From Candidatus Nomurabacteria bacterium (GTDB taxonomy: Bacteria; Patescibacteriota; Minisyncoccia; Phycocordibacterales; UBA918): 64,000 nucleotides of DNA. Location of the stretch: assembly GCA_020632075.1 (NCBI GenBank), contig JACKGH010000001.1:259216-323215 (forward strand). The letters are read 5' to 3'. The notes beneath the pieces are model-generated. The model saw only the letters and a program-made list of their open reading frames with translations, did not search any database and had not been told where the DNA came from. Of the stretch, positions 1,262 through 47,499 are shown in pieces. Positions within the stretch are counted from its first letter, which is position 1. Every line of letters starts with the position of its first letter. Position numbers and translations under genes: made by a program.

Positions 1262-1331
1262 ATTTACAGAACAGACATTAAGTGGCAGAATAACCCTTAT
1301 ATTACTTGGGTAAACGGGAGTTATTTTGCGT

Positions 1332-5305: not shown

Positions 5306-6652
5306 ATGGGAGGAATCATCAAAACGATATTCGGTGCCATCATGATACCGCTCTTTTTGTTTTTAGCGCTCAGCTTCATGTTCTTTGTCGTGTCCATGAC
5401 CGGCACAGACCTTGAACCGATTCTCAGTATCATCGTTGCCACCAGCCCAATCTGGCTCCCGTACACACTTTTCTACATTACCTTCGAAATGTGGATGTGG
5501 TCTGTCGGTGAGAAATTCAAATACCAAAATGGACGGAGCACCCTCCGCATCAAACTCCCACAGGAAGTACTCAAATCTCCAGAAGCGATGGAAAGTGTTC
5601 TTACCCAGGTACACAACGTCAACAGTCCGGATAACTACATGCAAACATACCTGGACGGCAAGCGACCACTCACACTCAGTCTTGAACTTGTATCGATCGG
5701 TGGTGATGTACGCTTTTACATCAACTGCCCGACCAAGAAGATCAAGAATGCGCTTGAAGCACAGCTCTATGCACAGTATCCAGGAATTGAAGTCACCGAA
5801 GAATTGGTCGACTACGCAGCTGAGGTGGTATGGGATAAAGACAAGTGGGAACTGATCTCTTTCCACATCCTCAAGAAGAGCAAGACCAGAGATGATGATG
5901 TCTTTCCGATCAAAACATATATCGATTACGGTCTCGATAAGCAACCAAAGGAGGAGCTCAAGTTTGAACCAATGGCACCGATCCTCGAACACCTGGGGAG
6001 CGCCAAGCCACATGAGCGTGTCTGGATCCAGATACTCTGTACACCACACGCAAAGAAAACTCTTAAAACAGGTAGTTTAAGCAAGCAAGATACCTGGGAA
6101 AAAAGCGCGGCTAAGAAGATCAATGAAATGATGGGGCGCGATGACAAGCGCATGAGTGTCGCTGGTGAAGAAACTGACACGCGCCCAATGCTCACTATGG
6201 GTGAGCGAGATGTGATCGCATCGATCGAGCGAAATACCAGCAAGTACGCGTATTCGGTGGGCATTCGTGCCATGTACATCACTCAAACAGGCAAATTCAA
6301 TCCTGACATGATAAGTCCGATGCTTCGTGGTTTCGGACAATTCGACATGATCGGACGAGCCAACCTTGGTCCAATGTGGCGCACAGACTTCGACTACAAT
6401 TTCTTCCAAGATTTCACTGGGCAGCGCAAGATCCGCATGAAGCGCAATGAACTCGAGTACTACAAGGCGCGCTACTATACCGAAGGTGACAAAAAGAACC
6501 TGGTTGACCGTGAGCGCATTATGTCGGTAGAGGAGCTGGCAACCATTTACCATATCCCTGGAACCTCAGTTATCACCCCAGGTGTTGGGCGAGTCGAAAA
6601 TACTCGCCGCGAAGCACCAGCCAATCTACCGATCGGCGAGTTGCCAACTTAG
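5306..6652 (+). CDS. hypothetical membrane-anchored protein (2 N-terminal TM helices, about 380 aa soluble domain)
   Basis: ORF with hydrophobic N-terminus; no Walker motifs; TACAAT 9 nt before ATG. Confidence 0.55.
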   Translation: MGGIIKTIFGAIMIPLFLFLALSFMFFVVSMTGTDLEPILSIIVATSPIWLPYTLFYITFEMWMWSVGEKFKYQNGRSTLRIKLPQEVLKSPEAMESVLTQVHNVNSPDNYMQTYLDGKRPLTLSLELVSIGGDVRFYINCPTKKIKNALEAQLYAQYPGIEVTEELVDYAAEVVWDKDKWELISFHILKKSKTRDDDVFPIKTYIDYGLDKQPKEELKFEPMAPILEHLGSAKPHERVWIQILCTPHAKKTLKTGSLSKQDTWEKSAAKKINEMMGRDDKRMSVAGEETDTRPMLTMGERDVIASIERNTSKYAYSVGIRAMYITQTGKFNPDMISPMLRGFGQFDMIGRANLGPMWRTDFDYNFFQDFTGQRKIRMKRNELEYYKARYYTEGDKKNLVDRERIMSVEELATIYHIPGTSVITPGVGRVENTRREAPANLPIGELPT

Positions 6653-24142: not shown

Positions 24143-25375
24143 ATGTCATTTTTTGGGCTTGGGAAACCAAGTGATCGTTACGGCGTTATCATAGACGTTG
24201 GTTCTGGTAGTGTGCTGACAGCAATCGTGCACTCTAGTCCAAAACAAAAACACCCACAGATCGTTTGGTCGCAACGTGAACACGCACCACTGCGCAATGT
24301 CGACTCTCTCGAACAGAGTGCCAAGGCGGTCATGACCGCACTCGTAAACTCAAGCATGCTCCTTGATACTGAAGGTCGTACTGCGCTGCGAGAGTACAAT
24401 CCCGACGCAAAACTCACCGAGCTCCAATGCAGCATCTCTGCACCGTGGTCATACACCGTCACAAAAACCATCAACTACAAGCAAGAAAAACCGTTTACGA
24501 TCACTGAGGAGCTTATCGAAGAACTCACTCATTCACTCCAACAAAAGATCGATAATGAGATCCGAGAAAATGAGGCAATGCAAAACCTAGGTCTGCAAGT
24601 GATCACCAGGGCCACCATGGACAGCCTTTCAAACGGCTACCGAGTAGAGGATCCGATCGGGGAAGAAGCCAAGGAGTTCTCGATCTCTCAGGGTAGTGTG
24701 GTTGCGCAAAACTACCTTATCGATGCGCTTGATGAAATGCGCGATAAACTTTTCCCAACAACAACTGGGAAAAAGCTCTCTTTCATTCTCATGCTGTTCA
24801 GTGTTACTCGCGAGCTACTACCGAAAACATACGATATCTGCCTTGTCGACGTAACCTACGAGGCGACCGAGATCGGAGTAGTTCGTGATGGCACACTGTC
24901 GTACTGCACCCACACACCATTTGGCTCATTTTCACTAGCCCGCGAGATCTCAGCGATCACAAATGTGCCACTACACGAAGCATTTGGCTACCTCCACACT
25001 GACAAGCCTCTGGCGTTTATGGAAGCATTATCTGCGGAGCAGAGGAAAGGTGTGGACGCAGCGATTGAAGCTTACATTGAAAAACTCAGCGCACTCTTTA
25101 GAGAAACGGGTGACGCACTCTCCATTCCGAAGAAGATCTCACTACATGCCGATCTGAAAAGCGAGCCGCTTTTTACTGGCTTGATCATGAAGGCAGCGAA
25201 AAGAAACCTTAAATCTGAACCAATAATTACCCCGATCTCGGGCAAAATCATTGAAATGACCTACGCTGAATCAACCAAGAAGACCACTCAGGTAGTTACC
25301 GGAGACACCGCACTCCTTCTCTCGGCCCAGTTTTTCCACAAACGCAAGCCGCGTGAGACTTTCGAGTACTTCTAA
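24143..25375 (+). CDS. actin-fold ATPase (FtsA/PilM-like)
   Basis: phosphate-1 IIDVGSGSV and phosphate-2 VDVTYEATEIGVV motifs; about 410 aa. Confidence 0.55.
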   Translation: MSFFGLGKPSDRYGVIIDVGSGSVLTAIVHSSPKQKHPQIVWSQREHAPLRNVDSLEQSAKAVMTALVNSSMLLDTEGRTALREYNPDAKLTELQCSISAPWSYTVTKTINYKQEKPFTITEELIEELTHSLQQKIDNEIRENEAMQNLGLQVITRATMDSLSNGYRVEDPIGEEAKEFSISQGSVVAQNYLIDALDEMRDKLFPTTTGKKLSFILMLFSVTRELLPKTYDICLVDVTYEATEIGVVRDGTLSYCTHTPFGSFSLAREISAITNVPLHEAFGYLHTDKPLAFMEALSAEQRKGVDAAIEAYIEKLSALFRETGDALSIPKKISLHADLKSEPLFTGLIMKAAKRNLKSEPIITPISGKIIEMTYAESTKKTTQVVTGDTALLLSAQFFHKRKPRETFEYF

Positions 25376-25398: not shown

Positions 25399-26736
25399 AT
25401 GACACAAAAATGGAACCTACAGGACATTCGTCCAGCAGAACCACGGAAGCGTCGACCCGCACCACGGCCGATGAACCAAGAAGAACGACCAAAAGCGCCA
25501 CCGATGGAAAAGCGCGAGAATATTCCTGAAATTGTTATTGAAGACGGACGAAAGAATTCGTCAAAGCGACTTTGGATATCTATTCTTATCTTTGCAGTGA
25601 TCGTTGGAGGTGCTGTCGCCCTCAGTGCCATGATGGCCAAGACCGAGATAACCGTCTACCCAGAACACCGCGAACCAAACGTCAGTGCAGAATTCACTGC
25701 CTATCCTGACAAGCGAGACAACGCACTGAGTTATGAGATCTTGACCCTAGAATCAACCAGCGAAAGCCAAGTGAAAGCAACCGGTCAAGTACAGGTTGAA
25801 GAGCAAGCCACCGGCATGATCGAGATCAAAAAGACAACTCCTGGCGCCGAGCGACTCATCAAAAATACTCGTTTCCGCACCCCCGACGGCTTGGTCTACC
25901 GTATCCAAGAATCAGTAGTGGTTCCAGGTTCAGTCACTAGCGAAACCGGTGCAAATATGCCAGGCACCATCCAAGCGGAAGTATTTGCTGACGACGTTGG
26001 CGAAGAATACAACGTTCCAGCTGGCACAACCTTTGATATTCCAGGCTTTGAAGAAAATGGTCTTATGGATCTCTACAACACCATTTCAGCCACTGCAGCT
26101 ACAGATCTCTCCGGCGGCTTCAGCGGACCGCAGTTTCAGATAGATGAAGGCGAGCTACAAACTGCACGACAAAAACTCCAAGTAGACCTTCGCAACACAC
26201 TCTTAGCACGAATCGAAAATGAACGCCCAGCAGATTTCATCGCGTTTCCAGGGGCAGTTGCTGTTACGTACAATCAACTTCCGGCTGTTGAGTACGGCAA
26301 TGAACTCGTCACTATTCGAGAGCAAGCCATCCTTCAGATCCCGCTGTTCCAAGCGACGGAGTTCGGTTCATTTCTTGCTAAAGAAACAATCCCAACCTAC
26401 GAAGGAGATCCGGTCCGTGTTGAAGACCCATCTGTACTAACATTCATGTATACCTCAGCAACCACAAGCTCGAGCGTCATCGCGAATGAGCCTTCGCTCA
26501 CTTTTAAACTCACTGGTAAGCCGCTCCTCATCTGGGAATACGACCCTGAAATGATGGCCGAAAACCTGGCTGGATTGCCAAAGACAGCAATTCACAATGC
26601 AACCCGTGATTATCCTGGAATTATTGGAGCACGCGTACACATGACCCCATTCTGGAAGCGCGCTTTCCCAGAAGACCCGACTGAAATAATCGTGATCGAA
26701 GAATTGAAGGATCCAGCTGAGCTCACAACTGAATAA
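25399..26736 (+). CDS. bitopic membrane protein with large extracytoplasmic domain
   Basis: P/R/K-rich N-terminus, single TM, about 370 aa ectodomain; TACAAT 6 nt before ATG. Confidence 0.55.
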   Translation: MTQKWNLQDIRPAEPRKRRPAPRPMNQEERPKAPPMEKRENIPEIVIEDGRKNSSKRLWISILIFAVIVGGAVALSAMMAKTEITVYPEHREPNVSAEFTAYPDKRDNALSYEILTLESTSESQVKATGQVQVEEQATGMIEIKKTTPGAERLIKNTRFRTPDGLVYRIQESVVVPGSVTSETGANMPGTIQAEVFADDVGEEYNVPAGTTFDIPGFEENGLMDLYNTISATAATDLSGGFSGPQFQIDEGELQTARQKLQVDLRNTLLARIENERPADFIAFPGAVAVTYNQLPAVEYGNELVTIREQAILQIPLFQATEFGSFLAKETIPTYEGDPVRVEDPSVLTFMYTSATTSSSVIANEPSLTFKLTGKPLLIWEYDPEMMAENLAGLPKTAIHNATRDYPGIIGARVHMTPFWKRAFPEDPTEIIVIEELKDPAELTTE

Positions 26737-31840: not shown

Positions 31841-31904
31841 CATTGAATCAGACTATCGTACTGTATCGACCAGTAGTACGCAGACACACCACAGGAGGTG
31901 AAGA

Positions 31905-32294
31905 TTGAACATACTACTGTTTGAAGATGACTTTTCGTGGCAAAGGCTGCTGCAAATAGAGCTTGAAGAAGAAGGACACTCCGTGACAGTCTATGGAGAC
32001 GGCAGCGTCCTGCGCGACCCAAGTTTCAACATCGACAAGTTCGATGTGGTGATCACCGACATGGAAATGCCAGTCGATGATGGGAGCGTAGTCATTGAAC
32101 TCGTGACTACGAGAGATGCAGAGCTACCGATCCTGCTCCACAGTTTTCACTACGATGGGTTCTTCGGCGGGGAACTGTGGCAACTGGCCGACATCTCTGG
32201 CAAGTACCCCTCAGTGACCTACCATGAAAAGCAAGTCGGCAACACTGATTACATCTACGAATTCCTCGAGCAGGTCGAACAGATGTACGACTGA
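31905..32294 (+). CDS. stand-alone response-regulator receiver (REC)-like domain protein, divergent
   Basis: ILLFEDD, FDVVITDMEMPVDDG; TTG start 6 nt after AGGAGG. Confidence 0.5.
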   Translation: MNILLFEDDFSWQRLLQIELEEEGHSVTVYGDGSVLRDPSFNIDKFDVVITDMEMPVDDGSVVIELVTTRDAELPILLHSFHYDGFFGGELWQLADISGKYPSVTYHEKQVGNTDYIYEFLEQVEQMYD

Positions 32295-38373: not shown

Positions 38374-38859
38374 ATGGATTGGGGACACATACTCAACTTT
38401 ATCTATGAGTTTGCTTACTTTATTGGTGTGTTTGCATTGTTTATTGTCTTTGCCGTCTTCAAGGGAAGACAAGCGACAATCAATGTGATTTTTGGACTTT
38501 ATCTCGCACTTTTGATCACGCTCGAGTTCCCGAACTACGATGCTATTTTCAAAAATATCGAGGGCGGTGCGCAAACTGCTATCGCACATTTGGTGCTCTT
38601 TGCGATCATTACCTTTATGACCACCGCACTTTGCTGGCGAGTCATGCCGGATGAATTCAGGGAAGAACGCTTCGAAAGCATGGGGAAGAAATTACTTCTC
38701 GCATTAAGTGCCACGATGCTGGTTATGATCTTTAGCTTCCACGTACTGCCAGTGACCGAATTCCTCACTCCTGGCACACCACTTCAGTCACTCTTTGGTC
38801 CGGAGCAATATTTCTTCTGGTGGCTACTAGTCCCACTGGTCATTCTCTACATAGTCTGA
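38374..38859 (+). CDS. hypothetical membrane protein (about 5 TM)
   Basis: TATAAT 7 nt before ATG. Confidence 0.55.
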   Translation: MDWGHILNFIYEFAYFIGVFALFIVFAVFKGRQATINVIFGLYLALLITLEFPNYDAIFKNIEGGAQTAIAHLVLFAIITFMTTALCWRVMPDEFREERFESMGKKLLLALSATMLVMIFSFHVLPVTEFLTPGTPLQSLFGPEQYFFWWLLVPLVILYIV

Positions 38860-38918: not shown

Positions 38919-39446
38919 TCAATCCAAACCCCACGATTCGCGAGCAGTCATGAGCTCGTCGATCTTTTCCTGGACGTCGTCCGGGTCCACATCGAGTCTC
39001 CGAGTGAGATCCCGCTCCTTCTCCATAGCGTCCTGATGGAACGCATAGTAGGGACAGTCGGGATCATCACCGGCTTCCGAGGTGTCTCCCGGGGCACGCT
39101 TGGCTTCGTACGCGAGGTCAAACTCGTCGACTTCGCGGAACGTAATTCCAGCGTGCCAAGCCTGCGGAACCTCGGTCTTTTCGTGATACTTAATGACGTA
39201 GTTGTAACGCCAGTCTCCCAGATCGGAGACCAGGATCACGAGCGTACCAAACATGGTGTAGTAGTAGTCACCAACGGTATTATACCGTTGCCACCAATGT
39301 TTGATCTCTTTTTCAACCGTCTTCCGCGGCTTATACTGACCAACGTAGCGCTGGTCCCAGTACGCGGTCCAGTACGCGGTCCACGGCCGTTTGACCATGA
39401 GCCACAACCGGACAACCAAGAGCAAACTTTTGCTAGGAACTTGCAT
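38919..39446 (-). CDS. hypothetical W/Y-rich protein
   Basis: GGGAGGTG RBS 6 nt before ATG; overlapping + strand ORF 38820..39590 looks antisense. Confidence 0.55.
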   Translation of the reverse strand: MQVPSKSLLLVVRLWLMVKRPWTAYWTAYWDQRYVGQYKPRKTVEKEIKHWWQRYNTVGDYYYTMFGTLVILVSDLGDWRYNYVIKYHEKTEVPQAWHAGITFREVDEFDLAYEAKRAPGDTSEAGDDPDCPYYAFHQDAMEKERDLTRRLDVDPDDVQEKIDELMTARESWGLD

Positions 39447-39582
39447 TCGACACCTCCCGATGTCTTAAGTAACTTATGTTTACATTATAGCATATTTCTG
39501 CAAAAAATCAATATTTTAGGCCAAAATCCACACCTACCCTTGAAAAAGTTGCATTTTTGTGTTACTGTTTTAATACAACATT

Positions 39583-39993
39583 ATGATTAACGTAGAAGCT
39601 GAAGGAATACAATTCGGCATCCATTTCATCCTGGATGGATACGGTGCCGCTAAAGAAACACTCACGAGCAGCAGTGACCTCCAAGACCTGCTTGAGCGCT
39701 TGCCAGCAGAGGTTGGCATGCACACTATTCACGACCCGGTCGTGGTAGAAGTCGGTCCAAACAACAAGAAAGACCCAGGAGGGATCAGTGGTTTTGTAAT
39801 GGTGGCAGAAAGCCATATTGCGATCCACACATTCCCAAATAGGGGCTTTGTTTCTATCGATGTCTACACCTGCAATGACACGCTACCAACTGATATCTTG
39901 CAGCAGCGTTTTACTGAACACTTCAAACTACAAAATGCTGACGTGCAAGTGATCGCACGAGGCACCAAGTATCCTGAACACGATATCTACTAA
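39583..39993 (+). CDS. speH: S-adenosylmethionine decarboxylase proenzyme, bacterial small form
   Basis: VAESHIAIHTFPN...VDVYTC; Ser of ESH is the pyruvoyl precursor. Confidence 0.8.
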   Translation: MINVEAEGIQFGIHFILDGYGAAKETLTSSSDLQDLLERLPAEVGMHTIHDPVVVEVGPNNKKDPGGISGFVMVAESHIAIHTFPNRGFVSIDVYTCNDTLPTDILQQRFTEHFKLQNADVQVIARGTKYPEHDIY

Positions 39994-40006
39994 ATTCTGA
40001 ATCACC

Positions 40007-41323
40007 ATGAAAGTCTTATTTATTTCCGGAGAACTGATCGGCTCAGCAGTCGTACACCAACTTATCAAGGAAGGGCACGACGTAAAGTTATATATCGACC
40101 ACGAAGATCGCCAAGACTGTTTCGACGGGATCGTTGAGCGTGTTGAATCCTGGGAAGACGAACTCGACTGGGTTGGGAAAGATGGCCTGATCGTGTTCGA
40201 TGATGTTACGTTTGCAGGTGAACAAGACCGTTTGCGTGAAGCTGGCTACAGTGTATTTGGCGGGGATTCGAAGAGCGATAAGCTTGAGATCGACCGTCTT
40301 CATTTTCATGACGTACTCGAAGCGCACGGCATTAAGACTTTGCGCGCCTATAATTTTGAAACAGCCGATGAAGCAGAACGGTTCATCCGTGAACAAAATG
40401 GTTCGAAGAAGTGGGTACTTAAGCAAAGCAGTCATATCGGTATGTTGAACTATGTCGGGCAGCGCCAAGATGGCCAAGATGTTTTTGACATGCTTAAGAT
40501 CTACCGCGAGAAGAACATCTCTCCCGTACATATCCAGCAGCGTGCAGAAGGGATCGAGATCGGTGTTGGCCGCTATTTCAACGGTAACGACTGGGTTGGC
40601 CCGATCGAGGTCAATCTCGAACATAAGCCGCTCTGTAATGGCGACATCGGCCCGCTCACTGCCGAAATGGGGACCGTCATTTGGTATGAGAACGACGAGA
40701 CATTGCCTCTGTACCAAGAAACACTCGCAAAACTCAAGCCATACCTTCAAGAAATAAACTACAAGGGTGACATCGACATCGACTGTATCGTCAATGCCGA
40801 GGGTGTCTGGCCGCTTGAGGCGACCATGCGCTTTGGTACTCCTTCGACTGAGCTCCAGTGTGAACTCCACGAATCACCATGGGGAGATTTCATGAAAGCG
40901 ATCGCTGACGGCCAACCATACGATCTACAGTACAAGACTGACTACGGCATCGTGGTGTCGGTTGTCATTCCACCATTTCCGTTTGCGCCAGAGATCTTTG
41001 GCGACTCAAATATTGAGACATGTCAGGGTGTCTCTGTATTCTTCAAAGACAACTTCAGCAAAGAAGATATGGAACACGTTCACTTTGAGGAGGTCTCACG
41101 CACCGTCAGTGACGACGGTCAAGAGCGCTACTATCTATCTGGGAAACACGGCTATGCACTCTACGCGACTGGCCACGGAGAGACTGTCGAAGAAGCACAG
41201 CAAAAAGCGTACGACATCATCAAGAAAATTATCATCCCCGAGATGTTTTACCGCACTGACATTGGCGACAAGTTTGTTCGCGAAGATCGGCAGCAGCTCA
41301 AAGACTGGGGATGGATCAAATAG
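40007..41323 (+). CDS. PurD-like ATP-grasp ligase, divergent (lacks GNGGREHA N-motif)
   Basis: C-terminal ...GYALYATGHGETVEEAQQKAYDIIKKI...RTDIG resembles the PurD C-domain; ATP-grasp central region. Confidence 0.6.
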   Translation: MKVLFISGELIGSAVVHQLIKEGHDVKLYIDHEDRQDCFDGIVERVESWEDELDWVGKDGLIVFDDVTFAGEQDRLREAGYSVFGGDSKSDKLEIDRLHFHDVLEAHGIKTLRAYNFETADEAERFIREQNGSKKWVLKQSSHIGMLNYVGQRQDGQDVFDMLKIYREKNISPVHIQQRAEGIEIGVGRYFNGNDWVGPIEVNLEHKPLCNGDIGPLTAEMGTVIWYENDETLPLYQETLAKLKPYLQEINYKGDIDIDCIVNAEGVWPLEATMRFGTPSTELQCELHESPWGDFMKAIADGQPYDLQYKTDYGIVVSVVIPPFPFAPEIFGDSNIETCQGVSVFFKDNFSKEDMEHVHFEEVSRTVSDDGQERYYLSGKHGYALYATGHGETVEEAQQKAYDIIKKIIIPEMFYRTDIGDKFVREDRQQLKDWGWIK

Positions 41324-41353
41324 CCACTATCTTCTAACTGCTACACTTACAAC

Positions 41354-42289
41354 ATGACTTGGTTTTTCTTCGCTCTCATCGGTCCGCTCTTGTATGCGAC
41401 GACAAATCATATCGACAAACTTCTCCTTGAAAAATACTTCAAAGAAGGTGGGGTAGGGACGCTGATGATCTTTTCATCAGTTTTGTCGATCTTGATCGTG
41501 CCATTTGTGTATATTGGCGAGATCTACTTCCATGGGAGTTCGAGTGCGTTTTCACTTGGCTGGGTAAACACGCTCACGCTCTGTACGGTAGGGTTACTTA
41601 ACATTCTCTTGCTTTGGTTCTACCTAAAAGCACTCGAAGACGATGAAGCCTCGATCGTGATCGTGTTTTATCAGCTCGTGCCAGTTTTTGGCTATATTCT
41701 TGGTTACTTCATCCTCGGTGAGGTTTTAAATCAGATGCAGCTTATTGCTATGGCGATCGTCATTCTCGGAACAAGCATCATTGCGGTTGAGATCGACAGT
41801 GAAAATAAATTCAAACTGCGCCGTAAGACGGTCTACTACATGCTTGGCGCGTCGTTGTGTTGGGCTCTTGGATCAGTGATCTTCAAGGCAGTGGCTATAG
41901 AAGAAAACGTCTGGGTGTCGCTCTTTTGGGAGAACACCATGCTCGTGATCGTTGGTATTTTCTTCCTCCTATTCATACCAAGCTACCGCAATCACTTTTT
42001 GACCGCGGTGCACAAAAACTCAGCTGCCATTCTTTCGATCAACGTCACCAACGAAGTACTCTACATGCTCGGTAACGCAGTAATGGCCTTTGCCTTCCTG
42101 ATGGCACCGATCGCACTTGTGCTGCTCACTCAATCATTCCAACCTATCTTCGTGCTAGCGATCGGCATCTTACTCACCATTTTCTTCCCAAGATTAGGAA
42201 CCGAGAAGATCGAATCAAAATACATCTTACAGAAATTGATCGCTATCCTGATCACTGGTATCGGTACATATCTACTGCTCACCAGTTAG
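41354..42289 (+). CDS. EamA/DMT-superfamily transporter (10 TM)
   Basis: duplicated 5-TM EamA-like halves. Confidence 0.75.
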   Translation: MTWFFFALIGPLLYATTNHIDKLLLEKYFKEGGVGTLMIFSSVLSILIVPFVYIGEIYFHGSSSAFSLGWVNTLTLCTVGLLNILLLWFYLKALEDDEASIVIVFYQLVPVFGYILGYFILGEVLNQMQLIAMAIVILGTSIIAVEIDSENKFKLRRKTVYYMLGASLCWALGSVIFKAVAIEENVWVSLFWENTMLVIVGIFFLLFIPSYRNHFLTAVHKNSAAILSINVTNEVLYMLGNAVMAFAFLMAPIALVLLTQSFQPIFVLAIGILLTIFFPRLGTEKIESKYILQKLIAILITGIGTYLLLTS

Positions 42290-42366: not shown

Positions 42367-42780
42367 ATGCAGCACCTTAAAGACCATCTTTTGTCATATG
42401 TTCTCGTACCGCTCCTTATCCTAGCGGCGGGAGCTTCGTATTATCGCTTTATGGTACTGCACGACCATATGGTCTCATACGAAGGTTTTTGTGACCCTGC
42501 TACCGAAAGCTGTTTCGTTGGTTGCGAGGAAGAGGTTGATGATATTGCAGAGTGTCCGACCGATCTGGTCTTTTACTACACTGAGGTGGAGCGACACGCC
42601 ACAGAGCTCTACACCCACTGCGGTGATTCAATCATCGATTGTCCTGAAGCTGACTACTGCACTGAAGACGAGCTAGATAGCTGTGTCGTTATTTACTGTG
42701 ATCCTCTAGAAGACGTGGGGCTGTGTGACGGTGAGGAACTAGCGCCCGACACAAGCGAGATTCGTTACCCGATCAATTAG
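42367..42780 (+). CDS. small secreted acidic Cys-rich protein (10 Cys)
   Basis: N-terminal TM/signal; D/E-rich; 4 nt upstream of histidine kinase. Confidence 0.5.
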   Translation: MQHLKDHLLSYVLVPLLILAAGASYYRFMVLHDHMVSYEGFCDPATESCFVGCEEEVDDIAECPTDLVFYYTEVERHATELYTHCGDSIIDCPEADYCTEDELDSCVVIYCDPLEDVGLCDGEELAPDTSEIRYPIN

Positions 42781-42783
42781 CCT

Positions 42784-44460
42784 ATGAACTGTTACTTATA
42801 CCCAGAACCTTCATATTTCTTCTTTGCTCCTGATCTACCTGGGTTGCTCTACTACTCGCATATTCCAACTTCTATCATCGCACTCTTAGTTGGCCTCTTT
42901 GTATTCTTGAACGCACGAAAACTACTCCTGAACAAACTCCTCCTCCTGATCGCGGTTTGTTTCTCGCTCTACACTTTCTTTAGCTTGATCGCATGGACGA
43001 ACGTCCATGGTGACTTTATCCTGTTCATCTGGCCTGCATTTGGCATTTTGCAAGCATTCATCTCAATATTTTCCGTCTACTTCATCTATGTTTTCTTACA
43101 AAAGTCAGATGTGTCAACCAAGCTCAAAGCTGTCTTTGCGGCTCTCTTAGCGCCAGTACTACTTTTTGCACACACCGATCTCAGCGTCAGCGGTTTCAAT
43201 CTCACGTATTGTGATTCATTTGGCTACGAAGGTGAACTGTACAAGTTCTATTACACTGCGCTTGGCGTACTCGCAATGTTCTGGATCGCAATACTCCTCT
43301 TAAAACACTATCGAAGCGCTGCGGTTGAATTCCGCAAACAGATCATTCTTATGGGTATTGGCATCGAGTTCTTCCTGTTTAGCTTCTTTACTATGTCTTT
43401 TTTAGCAACCTACCTGGCTGGACTCGGGGTGTTCGAAGACTCTAGTTTGGAGTTCTACGGCATGTTCGGCATGGCAGTGTTCATGACTATGATGGGCGTC
43501 CTCATTGTCCGTTTCAAAACCTTCAATGTTGGCCTTAGTGCATCGGTTGCACTAGTCGTCTCATTGGTTATTCTTGTTGGCTCACAATTCACGTACGTCG
43601 AGACCATGACAGCAAAGCTGCTGACTTCATTTACCTTGGTCATTACCGGTCTTATCGGTATCTTGTTGATGCGAAGTGTAAAGAAAGAGATCAAGCAGCG
43701 CCAAGAGCTTGAAGACCTCACCAAAAGACTTGAGAAGGCAAACACCAGACTCAAGGTGCTGGATAAGCAGAAGTCTGAGTTTGTGTCGATCGCATCACAC
43801 CAGCTGCGTAGCCCACTCACGGCGATCCGCGGATACGCGTCGCTACTCATTGATGGCGACTATGGAAACATCCCAAAGAAAGCTCTCGAGCCACTTTCGC
43901 GCATTGAGCAGTCGTCTCGACTGATGGTTATGGCGATCGAAGACTACCTCAACGTGTCTCGCATTGAAGCAGGAAACATGAAGTACAACATGGCTGATTT
44001 CAACCTTCGCGATGAAACCGAGCATGTGTGCGACGACCTCCGTGCCAGCGCGATCAAACGAGGTCTGGTATTGTACTTCAAAACCAACCTTCATAGTCGC
44101 GGTGTGGTCAATGCCGATCTTGGTAAAACAGTCCAGATCGTTCAAAACCTCATCACCAACTCGATCAAGTACACTGAGAAGGGGACCGTCGAAGTGCTCG
44201 TGCGAGACAACGTCGCTAAAAAACGCATCTATGTCGATATCATCGATACGGGTATTGGCATGAGTCAGGAAACACAACATACGATCTTCCAAAAGTTTGA
44301 GCGAGCGCATAATGCCAATGCAGTTAACATTCACGGCACTGGACTTGGCTTATACGTAGCACTCAAAATGGCACAAGCAATGAGAGGCGACATCACCGCC
44401 CACTCAGACGGAGAAGGAAAGGGGTCACGCTTTACCTTTGAGCTTCCGCTCGCACTATAA
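42784..44460 (+). CDS. sensor histidine kinase with about 7 TM N-terminal sensor
   Basis: H-box SEFVSIASHQLRSPL, N/G1/G2 boxes (GTGLGLYVA). Confidence 0.8.
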   Translation: MNCYLYPEPSYFFFAPDLPGLLYYSHIPTSIIALLVGLFVFLNARKLLLNKLLLLIAVCFSLYTFFSLIAWTNVHGDFILFIWPAFGILQAFISIFSVYFIYVFLQKSDVSTKLKAVFAALLAPVLLFAHTDLSVSGFNLTYCDSFGYEGELYKFYYTALGVLAMFWIAILLLKHYRSAAVEFRKQIILMGIGIEFFLFSFFTMSFLATYLAGLGVFEDSSLEFYGMFGMAVFMTMMGVLIVRFKTFNVGLSASVALVVSLVILVGSQFTYVETMTAKLLTSFTLVITGLIGILLMRSVKKEIKQRQELEDLTKRLEKANTRLKVLDKQKSEFVSIASHQLRSPLTAIRGYASLLIDGDYGNIPKKALEPLSRIEQSSRLMVMAIEDYLNVSRIEAGNMKYNMADFNLRDETEHVCDDLRASAIKRGLVLYFKTNLHSRGVVNADLGKTVQIVQNLITNSIKYTEKGTVEVLVRDNVAKKRIYVDIIDTGIGMSQETQHTIFQKFERAHNANAVNIHGTGLGLYVALKMAQAMRGDITAHSDGEGKGSRFTFELPLAL

Positions 44461-45805: not shown

Positions 45806-45821
45806 ACAGAACTGACCTGTA

Positions 45822-45848
45822 AGTCTCGCGTCGCGAGACTTTTTTGTT
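45822..45848 (+). terminator. rho-independent terminator
   Basis: agtctcgcg-tcg-cgagact then TTTTTGTT. Confidence 0.85.
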
Positions 45849-46120
45849 GACGTAAAGTAAGCTTCAGGATATTCTTTCAATAAGCCATTGAAGCAGCTGA
45901 CACTGTGGAGGTGGGAGAAGAAACGTGGCGGGATTTTTTAAAAGGTCTTTTAAAAAATCCCGCCACAGAGTAGACCTCTCCGGTTTGTGCCCGATATCGC
46001 ACTGGTCGAAAACTAAGGTCCTCACCTGAGGATGAAGTAGGGTGGCACCGCGACTCACAAGAGATTCGCCCCTACGAAACTATTAGTTACTAATACTTTC
46101 GTAGGGGCGGTTTTCTTTTC
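45847..46120 (+). promoter_or_regulatory. promoter (TTGACG-N17-TATTCT) plus T-box riboswitch leader controlling aspS
   Basis: T-box core tAGGGTGGCACCGCG at 46038..46052; antiterminator GGG[UGGCACC]GCG...CGCCCC competes with the terminator at 46067..46120; stem I hairpin at 45925..45966; candidate GAC specifier at 45973..45975. Confidence 0.7.
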
Positions 46121-46140: not shown

Positions 46141-47499
46141 ATGGAACGAACACTTATTTCCGACCTACACGAAAAAGTGGGGGAAGAAACACTTATTAAC
46201 TGTGTTGTCAGTACCGTGCGTCAGCAGGGCAAGATGGCCTTCTTCGACTTCCGCGACCGATCAAGTGTGATCCAGGGTGTGGTCTTCGGTAAACCTGAAG
46301 TACTCGAGGTCGCCAAGACCGTAAGCGAAGAAAGCCCACTCGCCGTGACCGGCATCGTCAACAAGCGCCCAGAAAAGGGAGTAAACGATAAGGTACCAAA
46401 TGGCGACATCGAACTCGAAATCACGAGCATCGAGGTGCTCAACCTTTCAGAAGCGATGCCGTTTGATATGAGTGCGGAACTCAACCTCGAGACTATTCTC
46501 GACAACCGGCCGCTTACCCTACGCCGACCACACGACCGCGCGATCTTCAAGATCCAAGCCACCATCACCCGCGCGTACGGTGAGTACATGCGGAGTCAAG
46601 GCTTTACTGAATTCCAAGCCCCAAAGATCGTTGGTGGCGATGCCGAAGGAGGGGCGGAGGTCTTCAAGGTCGACTACTTCAAGGGCGTAAAAGCCTCACT
46701 CGCTACCAGCCCGCAACTGTACAAGCAGATCATGGTGGGAGTGTTCGAGCGGGTCTTCACCTACGCCACCGCCTTCCGCGCCGAAAAGAGCGCAACGACC
46801 CGACACCTCAGCGAGTACACGTCACTCGATATGGAAATGGGATTCATCAAGGATCACACGGATCTTATGCGGATGGAAACCGGCTTGATGAAATACATCA
46901 GCACAGAAATCGGGAAAGTAAACGCTGCTGAACTCGAGATCCTCGGTATGGAGTTGCCGAAGCTACCTGAAGAAGACCTCTTCCCGCACTACAAGCTGCG
47001 CGAAGCACAGGAACTAATCAAGGAAAAAACTGGTAAAGATAAGGTAGGGGAGCCAGACCTAGAACCAGAAGACGAGCGCTGGCTTTGCGAGTACGCTGCA
47101 AGCGAGCTTGGTAGTGACTTCATTTTCATCACACACTATCCAGTCAGCAAACGACCATTCTACACGTACGAAGATGAAAATGACCCAGGCTTCACCAAGA
47201 GCTTCGACCTACTCTTCCGCGGGGTAGAGGTGACTACCGGCGGACAGCGTATCCACAGCCTTGAGACACTGAAAGATAAACTCGCTGCGAAGAAGATGGA
47301 CGCGAGCAACTTCGACTTCTACTTCCAAGCCTTCAAGTACGGCATTCCGCCACACGGCGGCTGGGGCATGGGGCTTGAGCGTCTCACACAGAAATTCTGT
47401 GGTGTACACAACGTAAAGGAAGCCACCCTCTTCCCACGCGACATCAACCGTATTGATACCTTTACATCAAAGGATGTGAGCGAGAGTGCAGAAATCTAA
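46141..47499 (+). CDS. aspS: aspartyl-tRNA synthetase, short archaeal/eukaryal-like type
   Basis: class II motifs FRAE..., GGWGMGLERL; SPQLYKQ; no GAD insertion. Confidence 0.85.
   Translation: MERTLISDLHEKVGEETLINCVVSTVRQQGKMAFFDFRDRSSVIQGVVFGKPEVLEVAKTVSEESPLAVTGIVNKRPEKGVNDKVPNGDIELEITSIEVLNLSEAMPFDMSAELNLETILDNRPLTLRRPHDRAIFKIQATITRAYGEYMRSQGFTEFQAPKIVGGDAEGGAEVFKVDYFKGVKASLATSPQLYKQIMVGVFERVFTYATAFRAEKSATTRHLSEYTSLDMEMGFIKDHTDLMRMETGLMKYISTEIGKVNAAELEILGMELPKLPEEDLFPHYKLREAQELIKEKTGKDKVGEPDLEPEDERWLCEYAASELGSDFIFITHYPVSKRPFYTYEDENDPGFTKSFDLLFRGVEVTTGGQRIHSLETLKDKLAAKKMDASNFDFYFQAFKYGIPPHGGWGMGLERLTQKFCGVHNVKEATLFPRDINRIDTFTSKDVSESAEI

Follow-up and report, generated by a model that had tools for sequence, protein, structure and literature searches.

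A pyruvoyl decarboxylase and a PurD-like ATP-grasp ligase share a five-gene operon of Patescibacteria with a transporter, a cysteine-rich membrane protein, and a sensor kinase

Several described systems bear on the locus analyzed here. In phevamine biosynthesis, which relies on the amidinotransferase HsvA and the ATP-grasp ligases HsvB and HsvC, HsvC condenses L-Val with amidinospermidine (PMC6187163). The AdoMetDC homologues tested from SpeY gene clusters are arginine decarboxylases of an agmatine-dependent pathway, and AdoMetDC-, PvlArgDC-, and PLP-type folds all serve as arginine decarboxylases in these clusters (PMC13625781). One Kaiserbacteria homologue assayed in the work on SpeDA and SpeY is an ornithine decarboxylase (PMC10407285, PMC13625781). 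Gln, Thr, Phe, and Tyr residues in the central region are diagnostic of SpeDC, the ornithine type (PMC10407285, section 7, Fig. S5). SpeDA proteins did not rescue an E. coli speD mutant (PMC10407285). Residue roles are also available for PurD, where the Arg and Glu of the GxGGREH loop have been assigned to the phosphate/acyl phosphate and ribose of PRA (PMC2978367). Our literature search found no description of the pathway that we propose below.

The window (the whole 64-kb stretch of Candidatus Nomurabacteria DNA that was analyzed) had received an initial annotation of a speH gene, a 438-aa ATP-grasp protein 13 nt on, and then an EamA-type exporter. These three genes are real, and their coordinates and sizes all match: on the plus strand, 39583-39993 encodes 136 aa, 40007-41323 encodes 438 aa, and 41354-42289 encodes 311 aa, with 13 nt between the decarboxylase and ligase genes and 30 nt between the ligase and EamA genes. 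They are, however, only the 5' portion of an operon of five genes (decarboxylase, ATP-grasp ligase, EamA, CysTM, kinase) that is undescribed and widespread in Patescibacteria. The continuation, a cysteine-rich membrane protein (CysTM) and a membrane histidine kinase, had been missed; across 81 loci, both are linked to the ligase more tightly than the decarboxylase is. A divergent intergenic region (39447-39582) separates the operon from a 175-aa gene on the minus strand and holds promoter-like sites at 39479-39508 (plus strand, 9/12) and 39511-39484 (minus strand, 10/12 with TG), which are consensus matches only. No Rfam element was found in this region. Further upstream, at 38374-38859 on the plus strand, lies c11memb, a 161-aa multi-pass membrane protein without a Pfam family, and members of its family precede the module in 9/81 ligase-anchored and 11/36 kinase-anchored loci. 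Between 39583 and 45821, the plus strand offers only short terminator-like matches with stems of 5-7 pairs. The first well-formed terminator-like hairpin after the operon start, with 9 pairs (45821-45841, plus strand), is probably where the transcription unit stops on its 3' side; the unit would then take in trpS and a 101-aa ORF as well. Intergenic gaps along this unit measure 13, 30, 77, 3, 9, and 55 nt. Scanned against Pfam, the roughly 45 long ORFs of the window yielded neither purine-biosynthesis genes nor a spermidine synthase, and custom HMMs for SpeE, PvlArgDC, arginase, and GAMT found no homologues in the window. The initial annotation was thus right that other purine genes are missing, and the spermidine synthase that it did not see next to speH is absent from the entire 64 kb.

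The product of 40007-41323 (plus strand) is a PurD-like ATP-grasp protein, predicted to be an amide ligase from HMM searches, hhalign, AlphaFold/Foldseek, and residue conservation. Pfam reports GARS_A (31.9 bits) and GARS_C (35.5 bits) with no GARS_N match, and homology to PurD had been described for the C-terminal region. The homology holds, but it is not restricted in this way. Aligned with E. coli PurD by hhalign, the ligase family matches over 393 columns from residue 1 (98.8 %, E 6.6e-17, 22 % identity), and the AlphaFold model (pLDDT 93.8) has the complete four-domain fold (N, B, A, C), with PurD structures taking all of the top 15 Foldseek places (E 1e-31 to 1e-25, TM 0.69-0.77). The ATP/Mg and carboxylate residues of an ATP-grasp carboxylate-amine ligase are kept (E94, R97, K139, E184, K207, E271, R275), and K139, E184, K207, and E271 are invariant in 54 sequences; the carboxylate-binding Arg is invariant as well. 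As had been noticed, the GNGGREHA motif is absent; SGELIGSA stands in its place, and none of the 54 family members has the GxGGREH(A/T) loop, nor does the wider clade. Compared with human PurD, R292 is kept as R275, D217 has become E205, D295 has become T278 (a variable position), and E297 has become S280. All PRA-assigned residues (the Arg and Glu of GxGGREH, and D295) are therefore gone, and so are two glycine ligands, the majority of the residues with that role. The family has invariant residues of its own, E220 (a Glu in the GGMG loop) and T273 (a Thr for the Mg-site Asn), and reads FDD in place of the PurD GPE. The changes at PRA and glycine positions are common to a wider clade of 30-45 % identity that spans archaea, proteobacteria, and phage contigs. 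Polaromonas, Halorussus, and a Rhodospirillales genome of 6 Mb all carry homologues, although these organisms should have their own purD, and a fusion of ATP-grasp and SET domains exists. Against TIGR00877 (purD), the ligase scores 99.9 bits where the cutoff is 288; PurD proteins from the PDB score 17-55 bits. The earlier doubt about a PurD identity was well placed: this is an intact ATP-grasp enzyme but not PurD, and it belongs to a separate, uncharacterized clade of PurD paralogues rather than to GAR synthetase.

The remaining genes suggest transport and sensing. The EamA/DMT-family protein (41354-42289, plus strand; PF00892 40.5 bits, cutoff 28.2) has ten hydrophobic segments, consistent with about 10 TM segments, and is the presumed exporter of the module's product. 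EamA proteins may import as well as export. CysTM (42367-42780, plus strand) matches no Pfam family. It has one TM segment, about 10 cysteines in a conserved pattern, and an acidic domain (18.5 % Asp+Glu); the Cys-rich domain is presumably extracellular, and the protein is a possible co-sensor. The kinase gene (42784-44460, plus strand) starts 3 nt past the CysTM stop and encodes the HisKA and HATPase_c core of a two-component kinase (PF00512 53.5 bits, PF02518 84.7 bits), preceded by a polytopic sensor region (residues 1-300, about 9 TM segments) for which no family match was found. A cognate response regulator is adjacent in only 16/81 loci, and none is adjacent in the window. What hints at a possible quorum-sensing-like operon of synthase, exporter, and receptor is the order of the genes together with the polytopic sensor.

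To describe linkage, we counted genes within 2.5 kb of the ligase, unless stated otherwise, in 81 species-level ligase loci. The kinase was found in 62/81, EamA in 59/81, CysTM in 48/81, and an AdoMetDC-like gene in 25/81, while gene order and orientation were shuffled and proximity was kept. The adjacency of the ligase to speH and EamA is consequently not a matter of chance, and the functional link that had been proposed between these genes is supported. A polyamine gene of any kind lies within 6 kb of the ligase in only 34/81 loci, which leaves room for an amine made at another locus or taken from the host. The decarboxylase slot itself varies. A PvlArgDC-type gene occupies it in a close patescibacterial relative (L103), where identity to the window is 66 % for the ligase, 67 % for EamA, and 64 % for the kinase, and also in the Rhodospirillales copy (L004). 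In three further loci (L050, L076, L094) it is filled by a PLP-dependent decarboxylase (Orn/DAP/Arg-type), which is closest to DAP decarboxylases and so need not act on arginine. Among the accessory genes are an agmatinase (TIGR01230 184 bits, cutoff 174), a GAMT homologue (PDB match E 3.7e-45), PrmA/PRMT-like, SET, and GNAT enzymes, a formyltransferase, and SpeE. Judged by their families, these recurrent enzymes act on guanidino or amino groups.

Two foreign copies, one on the chromosome of the alphaproteobacterium (Rhodospirillales) and one on a phage-like contig, consist of a low-GC ligase and EamA in high-GC DNA, with a decarboxylase gene beside them and without the kinase. EamA moves together with the ligase in both of these cases of horizontal transfer. 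All three genes are low-GC in L094; in L004 the PvlArgDC-like gene has a host-like GC content (58 %) and may have joined the ligase and EamA by recruitment instead of arriving with them. Decarboxylase, ligase, and EamA thus recur together outside Patescibacteria.

Loci anchored on the kinase provide a second view. In 36 such loci with at least 5 kb upstream, CysTM was present in 29, and the enzyme before EamA-CysTM-kinase was ATP-grasp in 9/36, LPG_synthase_C in 10/36, and a protein of unknown family in 10/36. The three were never found together and are mutually exclusive in one slot. LPG_synthase_C is an aminoacyl-tRNA-dependent transferase domain, and some of these loci follow the gene order of the window, with it in the ligase position (speH, LPG_synthase_C, EamA, CysTM, kinase). 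The exclusive condensing enzymes and the collinear loci point to aminoacyl transfer as the shared chemistry.

Setting out from the gene identities, folds, residue conservation, and patterns of linkage and replacement observed, we infer substrates, a transport direction, and a role for the kinase. The reading that we favor, at roughly even confidence, is a module in which amine supply, ATP-dependent amide ligation, and export are coupled to a sensor kinase. The pyruvoyl decarboxylase would supply a polyamine-type primary amine, most likely agmatine from arginine; alternatively, it would provide decarboxylated SAM (dcSAM) for an aminopropylated amine such as N1-aminopropylagmatine. The PurD-like enzyme would phosphorylate a carboxylate, which probably belongs to an amino acid, and the resulting acyl phosphate would react with the amine to give a cationic amide, of either aminoacyl-agmatine or aminoacyl-polyamine type. 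In other lineages this product may be methylated, acetylated, formylated, or de-amidinated. EamA would export it, and the acidic Cys-rich protein and the 9-TM kinase would act as sensors of the product or of the changes that it causes in the envelope. A bolder version, which we consider unlikely, is a phylum-wide, diversifying system of chemical communication. Cationic pseudo-peptides peculiar to each lineage, aminoacyl-agmatines or aminoacyl-polyamines, would be exported by EamA and sensed by CysTM and the kinase, and the molecule would be diversified by the three interchangeable condensing enzymes and by lineage-specific methyl-, acetyl-, and formyl-transferases. The kinase and CysTM would detect the molecule or a host response, as a signal-receptor pair between symbionts or between symbiont and host.

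The initial annotation had proposed a similar route of amine-carboxylate ligation and export, with dcSAM as its key intermediate. Ligation and export survive as the most economical reading; the special place of dcSAM is not supported, since a PvlArgDC (L103, L004) or a PLP decarboxylase (L050, L076, L094) can fill the same slot. The decarboxylase (39583-39993, plus strand) has the class 1b AdoMetDC fold (PF02675, 89 bits) and keeps the self-processing site ES77↓H as well as His82 and Cys97, which align with S63, H68, and C83 of T. maritima. The SpeDC signature Q..ETS..HF..Y is not found, the window reading VMVAESHIAIHTFP; a SpeDC-type ornithine decarboxylase was rejected for 39583-39993 because Q..ETS..HF is absent. 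The substrate would be either L-arginine (SpeDA-type) or AdoMet. A genuine AdoMet decarboxylase, whose dcSAM would serve as aminopropyl donor (with SpeE elsewhere) or as the amine substrate of the ligase, is the strongest of the rival explanations, though we think it improbable. It gains from a TIGR03330 score just over the cutoff (76.4 bits against 75.65, a borderline pass) and from the Pro of the HTxP motif, which is conserved in bona fide AdoMetDC and present here. A 69 %-identical homologue in L116, whose immediate downstream neighbor is a canonical SpeE (motifs GGGDGG and DSTDP), suggests an AdoMetDC too. One locus (L068) carries a bona fide-like SpeD-SpeE fusion and a second SpeE in the slot upstream of the ligase, and another (L058) has a SpeE-like fragment. 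However, SpeE is absent from the window, identity is 26 % to T. maritima SpeD and only 22-26 % to bona fide SpeD overall, and where the six bona fide or bona fide-like SpeD sequences that we examined have WPE, FPN/K/R stands here. The SpeDA family has no clear sequence signature. The contexts conflict: set against the SpeE neighbor are a 55 %-identical homologue (P0324) in an agmatine-dependent cluster with SpeY and SpeB, and the PvlArgDC replacement, both of which suggest an arginine decarboxylase. Arginine decarboxylation is at least as likely as direct use of dcSAM, and L116 and L068 mean that dcSAM may still contribute an aminopropyl group.

A second rival is modification of envelope charge, in the manner of MprF or Arn. 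The condensing enzyme would place a cationic group (an amino acid, agmatine, or a polyamine) on a membrane lipid or cell-wall precursor, EamA would flip the modified lipid outward, and the acidic CysTM and the kinase would sense cationic stress and regulate the system. We regard this as somewhat less probable again. One argument for it is LPG_synthase_C, the aminoacyl-phosphatidylglycerol synthase domain of MprF, as the exclusive alternative to ATP-grasp in the same slot; such domains normally aminoacylate lipids, which fits the envelope explanation, and a stand-alone homologue has a solved structure (2hqy). Several loci contain a formyltransferase; ArnA carries a formyltransferase domain, and the flippases ArnE/F belong to the DMT type. 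Nearly the whole kinase sensor lies within the membrane, CysTM is acidic, and a distant phage homologue of the ligase adjoins an M15 peptidase, a lysin-like gene. On the other hand, the LPG_synthase_C variant, too, comes with a gene of the arginine-decarboxylase type (speH, LPG_synthase_C, EamA). Such a gene would be needless if phosphatidylglycerol were the acceptor, which suggests a free amine in that role. The ligase has no membrane segment, genes for lipids or peptidoglycan precursors are not consistently adjacent, and ligase and EamA, with a decarboxylase alongside, are found in unrelated hosts with different envelopes.

Adjacency could also be inherited synteny of a patescibacterial housekeeping region (dnaK, dnaJ ... 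trpS, aspS) without shared function, which we consider very improbable. DnaK, DnaJ, TrpRS, and AspRS do recur near the ligase in many loci, and this conserved synteny inflates some of the linkage, but the housekeeping neighbors reach only 13-20/81 loci, whereas the kinase reaches 62 and EamA 59. Proximity outlasts changes in order and orientation, ligase and EamA lie with a decarboxylase in foreign high-GC DNA, and the condensing enzymes exclude one another in a single slot. It is highly improbable that the ligase is a true, if divergent, PurD belonging to a residual purine pathway, beside unrelated neighbors: PurD is by far its closest known family in sequence and fold, and many members are publicly annotated as phosphoribosylamine--glycine ligase, but the subthreshold TIGR00877 score, the lost PRA residues and two glycine ligands, the window without pur genes, the homologues in Polaromonas, Halorussus, and Rhodospirillales, and the strong linkage to EamA and the kinase argue against it, as does the module's presence in the cultured Minisyncoccus archaeiphilus, for which several nucleotide-biosynthesis genes are reported missing (PMC12281837).

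The ligase family defines a new functional clade of PurD paralogues, whose members are misannotated in many genomes, including those of archaea, proteobacteria, and phages. The locus also offers a natural test case for the mutual replacement of ATP-grasp ligases and aminoacyl-tRNA-dependent transferases. A large part of bacterial diversity belongs to the Patescibacteria, or candidate phyla radiation, which live on other cells with hardly any biosynthetic capacity; for this reason it is notable that so many of them retain a dedicated locus for synthesis, export, and sensing. An arginine- or polyamine-derived amide, should the product prove to be one, would rank among the first specialized metabolites attributed to Patescibacteria and would be a candidate mediator of host interaction. 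As one carrier of the module, M. archaeiphilus PMX.108, is in culture, the hypothesis is directly testable.

Under the amide-ligation reading, the locus resembles known systems in part only. It shares with PurD (EC 6.3.4.13) the N-B-A-C architecture over the whole length of the ligase, the ATP/Mg ligands, and the Arg that holds the carboxylate or acyl phosphate, so the same chemistry is expected, namely formation of an acyl phosphate followed by attack of a primary amine. It differs in being about 20 % identical, far under the equivalog cutoff, in replacing the GxGGREH loop, the PRA-amine-binding Asp, and one glycine-binding Glu, and in having no purine-pathway context. With MprF, the likeness lies in sister loci that put a stand-alone LPG_synthase_C beside a polytopic transporter and a membrane sensor kinase. 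The logic of synthase, flippase, and GraS/ApsS sensing is echoed here. Unlike MprF, the window has no LPG_synthase_C, its transporter is of the DMT type rather than an MprF flippase domain, a decarboxylase accompanies the module, and a lipid acceptor is hypothetical. The SpeDA/SpeY systems (PMC10407285, PMC13625781) have in common with the locus the class 1b AdoMetDC fold with its pyruvoyl Ser, His, and Cys, the lack of a nearby SpeE, interchange with PvlArgDC- and PLP-type decarboxylases, and the 55 % homologue in a SpeD-SpeY-SpeB cluster. The partner of the window decarboxylase is, however, an ATP-grasp ligase and not SpeY, and the assayed Kaiserbacteria ornithine decarboxylase carries a signature that the window decarboxylase lacks. 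Phevamine of Pseudomonas syringae differs in that an amidinotransferase adds the guanidino group to spermidine, where here arginine decarboxylation would provide it, and in an hsv operon described without EamA, CysTM, or kinase. In the small hsv operon, an ATP-grasp enzyme joins the carboxylate of an amino acid to the primary amine of a guanidino-polyamine, and the reaction proposed here would be of the same kind. Phevamine is a cationic pseudo-peptide that is secreted and affects another organism, and the product here may likewise be one.

The five genes considered here stand in a row on the plus strand. The decarboxylase gene speH (39583-39993, 136 aa) is followed after 13 nt by that of a PurD-like ATP-grasp ligase (40007-41323, 438 aa), after 30 nt by an EamA-family transporter (41354-42289, 311 aa), after 77 nt by CysTM, an acidic protein with one transmembrane segment and about 10 cysteines (42367-42780), and after 3 nt by a histidine kinase with about nine transmembrane segments ahead of its HisKA and HATPase_c domains (42784-44460). 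The first three ORFs lie exactly where the initial annotation had placed them. As it also stated, there is no purine-biosynthesis gene in the window and no spermidine synthase beside speH; neither occurs among the roughly 45 further ORFs across the 64 kb, which are housekeeping genes or unknowns. Between 39583 and a nine-pair hairpin at 45821, all terminator-like matches were short, with stems of 5-7 pairs. Neither the region ahead of the operon nor 10 related loci showed a riboswitch or other RNA element that might name a metabolite, and the kinase sensor, CysTM, the alternative membrane protein c10 and a divergent 175-aa gene matched no Pfam family even at E = 1.

The 175-aa gene (38919-39446, minus strand) has its own promoter-like and terminator-like sites, and homologues of it lie beside the module in one comparison locus (L009) and between ligase and kinase in another (L069). 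The kinase has no adjacent regulator in the source genome; 10 kb upstream of it, an ORF of about 130 codons from stop to stop (31902-32294, plus strand) weakly resembles (27.5 bits) the receiver domain found in the module's response regulator. Downstream, a T-box-leader-like element (45879-46076, plus strand; 37 bits, E 1.9e-5, well under the Rfam gathering score of 93) directly precedes an aspartyl-tRNA synthetase gene (46141-47499). Elsewhere in the window, leucyl-tRNA synthetase (1326-4106, plus strand, 926 aa) carries a NUDIX-domain match (E 3.5e-7) at residues 377-453, just past the editing domain, which would be an unusual insertion. Large plus-strand ORFs lacked a Pfam match at E 1e-3 (5306-6652, 448 aa; 24143-25375, 410 aa) or at E 1e-5 (25399-26736, 445 aa).

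The ligase matches GARS_A and GARS_C weakly and scores 99.9 bits against TIGR00877 (purD), for which the cutoff is 288. Public data contain an identical protein, assigned to Candidatus Kaiserbacteria. An indexed search returned 1324 homologues, mostly 50-66 % identical and mostly patescibacterial, and an exhaustive search gave 290 family representatives at E <= 1e-30. For an AlphaFold model built from 54 sequences (pLDDT 93.8), the 15 best solved-structure matches were all PurD (E 1e-31 to 1e-25, TM about 0.75, 18-22 % identity), followed by biotin carboxylase and PurK at about 1e-17 to 1e-18. The initial annotation had confined the likeness to the C-terminal region. That part stands; the restriction does not, since a profile comparison of the family with E. 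coli PurD aligned 393 columns from residue 1 (98.8 %, E 6.6e-17), and the homology therefore takes in the N domain. To locate the functional residues, we transferred to the alignments the ligand residues reported for PurD from A. aeolicus and human (PMC8880213, PMC2978367). Kept and invariant are E94 (ATP/Mg site), R97 (the counterpart of PurD K103), K139 and E184 (ATP ligands), K207 (ATP/Mg ligand), E271 (Mg site) and R275, the Arg holding the carboxylate or acyl phosphate. The missing N-terminal motif was noted correctly at the outset: the Arg-Glu of GxGGREH, which in PurD binds the phosphate and ribose of phosphoribosylamine (PRA), is Ile-Gly. In addition, the Asp binding the PRA amine corresponds to a variable position (T278), one glycine-binding Glu is Ser or Ala (S280), the Mg-site Asn is an invariant Thr (T273), and the GGMG loop has an extra invariant Glu (E220). 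Distant relatives at 30-45 % identity, from Halorussus, Polaromonas, Woesearchaeota and phage-like contigs, have the same changes. Judged by these residues, the family is a distinct clade of PurD paralogues with an apparently intact catalytic core and a predicted different substrate pair.

Several distant homologues have features of their own. Inteins with Hint, Intein_splicing and LAGLIDADG domains interrupt three of them (P0137, P0147 and P0153) at sites close to residues 223 and 274 in window numbering, beside conserved active-site motifs. In P0149 (L093, 3179-4915), the PurD-like ATP-grasp is fused to a C-terminal SET domain; upstream are a separate SET-domain gene (2781-3170), a CMAS-like methyltransferase and a radical-SAM enzyme. 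In Polaromonas aquatica (L085, 7228-10887), a homologue with 36 % identity is the middle gene of three, between a methyltransferase and a heme-oxygenase-like protein (Haem_oxygenas_2), and a histidine kinase follows closely downstream on the other strand; here the same ligase clade seems to serve a different small-molecule pathway. Homologues at 28-33 % identity occur in phage-like contigs (L091/L092, 6001-7287 in L091; L095, 4992-6305; L096, 5001-6299), one beside genes for a lysin-like M15 peptidase and for a family A DNA polymerase, and two among large proteins without a Pfam match. A phage origin of the ligase was rejected, as an annotated phage collection gave only weak matches (22-26 % identity) and the single close copy among IMG/VR contigs lies in a low-GC insert.

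To assess the gene neighbourhood, we fetched 80 species-representative genome loci anchored on the ligase, nearly all from Patescibacteria and including the cultured Minisyncoccus archaeiphilus. ORFs were called, clustered and searched with HMMs made from the clusters, and counts are given per 81 loci. The grouping of decarboxylase, ligase and transporter to which the initial annotation drew attention is conserved: within 2.5 kb of the ligase, EamA was found at 59 loci and an AdoMetDC-like decarboxylase at 25, along with the membrane histidine kinase (62), CysTM (48) and a REC-domain response regulator (16). Another polytopic membrane protein replaces EamA at 10 loci, most of them EamA-less. 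One metagenome-assembled genome, CAJWTE01, holds two copies of the module (L007 and L008), each with speH, ligase, EamA, CysTM and kinase and with ligases that share 64 and 65 % identity with that of the window; either the two modules are paralogues or the bin mixes strains.

The reciprocal search took the kinase sensor domain as its query. Among 80 metagenome loci fetched, 36 had at least 5 kb upstream, and there CysTM was present in 29 and EamA in 22. EamA-CysTM-kinase was preceded by the PurD-like ligase at 9 loci, by a stand-alone LPG_synthase_C protein at 10, by a 275-aa family, fam278, at 10 and by none of the three at 7. No locus had more than one of them, where by our own arithmetic about 8 would be expected under independence. 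Since only about a quarter of loci with the kinase have the ligase, we dropped the idea of a kinase dedicated to it. EamA-CysTM-kinase forms the conserved core, to which three enzyme modules, the ligase among them, are joined as alternatives. The LPG_synthase_C protein (PF09924, 62 bits) corresponds to the aminoacyl-tRNA-dependent transferase domain of MprF; it was found at none of the 81 ligase-anchored loci. Several loci are collinear with the window save for this one gene, reading speH, LPG_synthase_C, EamA, CysTM, kinase, with speH 46-58 %, EamA 59-61 % and kinase 45-63 % identical. Because one of the alternatives is an aminoacyl transferase, their common chemistry is likely aminoacyl transfer to a nucleophile, which agrees with two residues that the ligase retains, the Arg that binds the carboxylate and an acidic ligand of the amino group (E205). 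For fam278, which stands in place of the ligase at roughly one kinase locus in four (e.g., L116, 3823-4662; L135, 3808-4644; L127, 4748-5605; L156, 2724-3527), a model with pLDDT 91 gave no significant solved-structure match and only weak matches to HUP-class nucleotidyltransferases and ligases.

Evidence of horizontal transfer comes from base composition. On a 6-Mb Rhodospirillales chromosome (L004), the ligase and EamA genes have 38-41 % GC between flanks of 55-60 %, with a PvlArgDC-like gene of 58 % GC just 5'; this decarboxylase either came with the pair or was recruited locally. Of the three ligase copies in IMG/VR, one close and two distant, the close one lies on a contig of 60-65 % GC encoding a helicase, a Prim-Pol primase and a ParB-methylase, in a 4-kb insert of 34-40 % GC whose only genes are those of the ligase, a PLP decarboxylase and EamA. 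Ligase and EamA, with a decarboxylase adjoining and without the kinase, thus occur in two unrelated foreign contexts.

The identity of the decarboxylase bears on the amine that the ligase would use. The speH product matches Pfam AdoMet_dc (89 bits) and TIGR03330 (76.4 bits, just over the cutoff of 75.65), and the Ser that gives rise to the pyruvoyl group is retained, as are the catalytic His and Cys. The protein is one of a patescibacterial subfamily numbering about 300 sequences, and its identity to bona fide SpeD is just 22-26 %; an ornithine decarboxylase of the SpeDC type was ruled out, as the SpeDC signature is missing. In the slot of speH, both the Rhodospirillales copy and a closely related patescibacterial contig (L103) have a PvlArgDC-type gene that carries the LSS processing motif; L103 shares 66, 67 and 64 % identity with the window in ligase, EamA and kinase, respectively. 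A PLP-dependent decarboxylase of the Orn/DAP/Arg fold takes the slot in L050, L076 and L094. In L068 it is filled by a SpeD-SpeE fusion accompanied by another SpeE, and in L058 by a SpeE-like fragment. One speH homologue (55 % identical) lies in a cluster of AdoMet_dc, SpeY and SpeB. Those AdoMetDC homologues of SpeY clusters that were assayed are arginine decarboxylases, and the SpeY pathway needs agmatine (PMC10407285, PMC13625781), which three decarboxylase folds supply (PMC13625781); the same three are found beside the ligase. Finally, speH has FPN/K/R in place of the WPE motif that was seen in the six SpeD sequences examined, all of them bona fide or bona fide-like. The PvlArgDC replacements, the SpeY cluster, the shared folds and the altered motif argue for an arginine decarboxylase. 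A genuine AdoMetDC is suggested by the SpeD-SpeE fusion, by the TIGR03330 score and by a 69 %-identical homologue directly 5' of canonical SpeE (L116), a pair that weakened an earlier reading of speH as clearly an arginine decarboxylase. On balance, we slightly favour arginine decarboxylase; AdoMetDC is possible, and some other activity improbable. The amine might need both agmatine and decarboxylated SAM (dcSAM), for example as N1-aminopropylagmatine, which would reconcile both sets of evidence. This compound is an isomer of amidinospermidine, which the ATP-grasp HsvC acylates with valine in phevamine biosynthesis (PMC6187163). Recurrent at module loci are an agmatinase over the TIGR01230 cutoff, a guanidinoacetate-methyltransferase homologue (E 3.7e-45 against solved GAMT structures), PrmA/PRMT-like, SET and GNAT enzymes and a formyltransferase, all of which work on guanidino or primary amino groups.

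The model best supported, to which we give about an even chance, has four parts: the decarboxylase would supply an amine, the PurD-like enzyme would carry out ATP-dependent amide ligation, EamA would export the product, and CysTM and the kinase would sense. A pathway centred on dcSAM, as in the initial annotation's proposal of dcSAM-based ligation and export, overlaps with this model and draws on the SpeE associations of speH; we regard it as conceivable and rather doubtful. The main rival, which we hold to be unlikely, is envelope modification of the MprF/Arn kind, in which the product would be a lipid- or wall-linked cationic group flipped outward by EamA. The LPG_synthase_C loci bring MprF to mind, but this rival is weakened by the presence of the decarboxylase with that variant too. 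Very unlikely are both mere synteny, with gene order and orientation differing among ligase loci (kinases divergent, transporter 5' or 3' of the ligase) and the housekeeping neighbours AspRS, DnaK and TrpRS at only 13-20 of them, and a genuine PurD, rejected because of the HMM score below cutoff, the loss of substrate-binding residues and the neighbouring genes.

Our literature searches found no description of the module or of the PurD-paralogue clade, and no paper tying ATP-grasp enzymes to AdoMetDC, agmatine or polyamines in Patescibacteria; a paper on a CfmP/TupA-like ATP-grasp proved unrelated. By descent, the closest relative of the ligase is PurD, while the closest functional analogue of the four-part model is the phevamine pathway. 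The decarboxylase resembles the AdoMetDC-derived arginine decarboxylases (SpeDA) of the Michael laboratory, and the sister loci with LPG_synthase_C recall MprF. A small biosynthetic operon with an ATP-grasp amide ligase at its heart is a known arrangement. Unusually, the module is tied throughout the phylum to a transporter, a Cys-rich membrane protein and a polytopic sensor kinase, and its condensing enzyme is swapped among three types.
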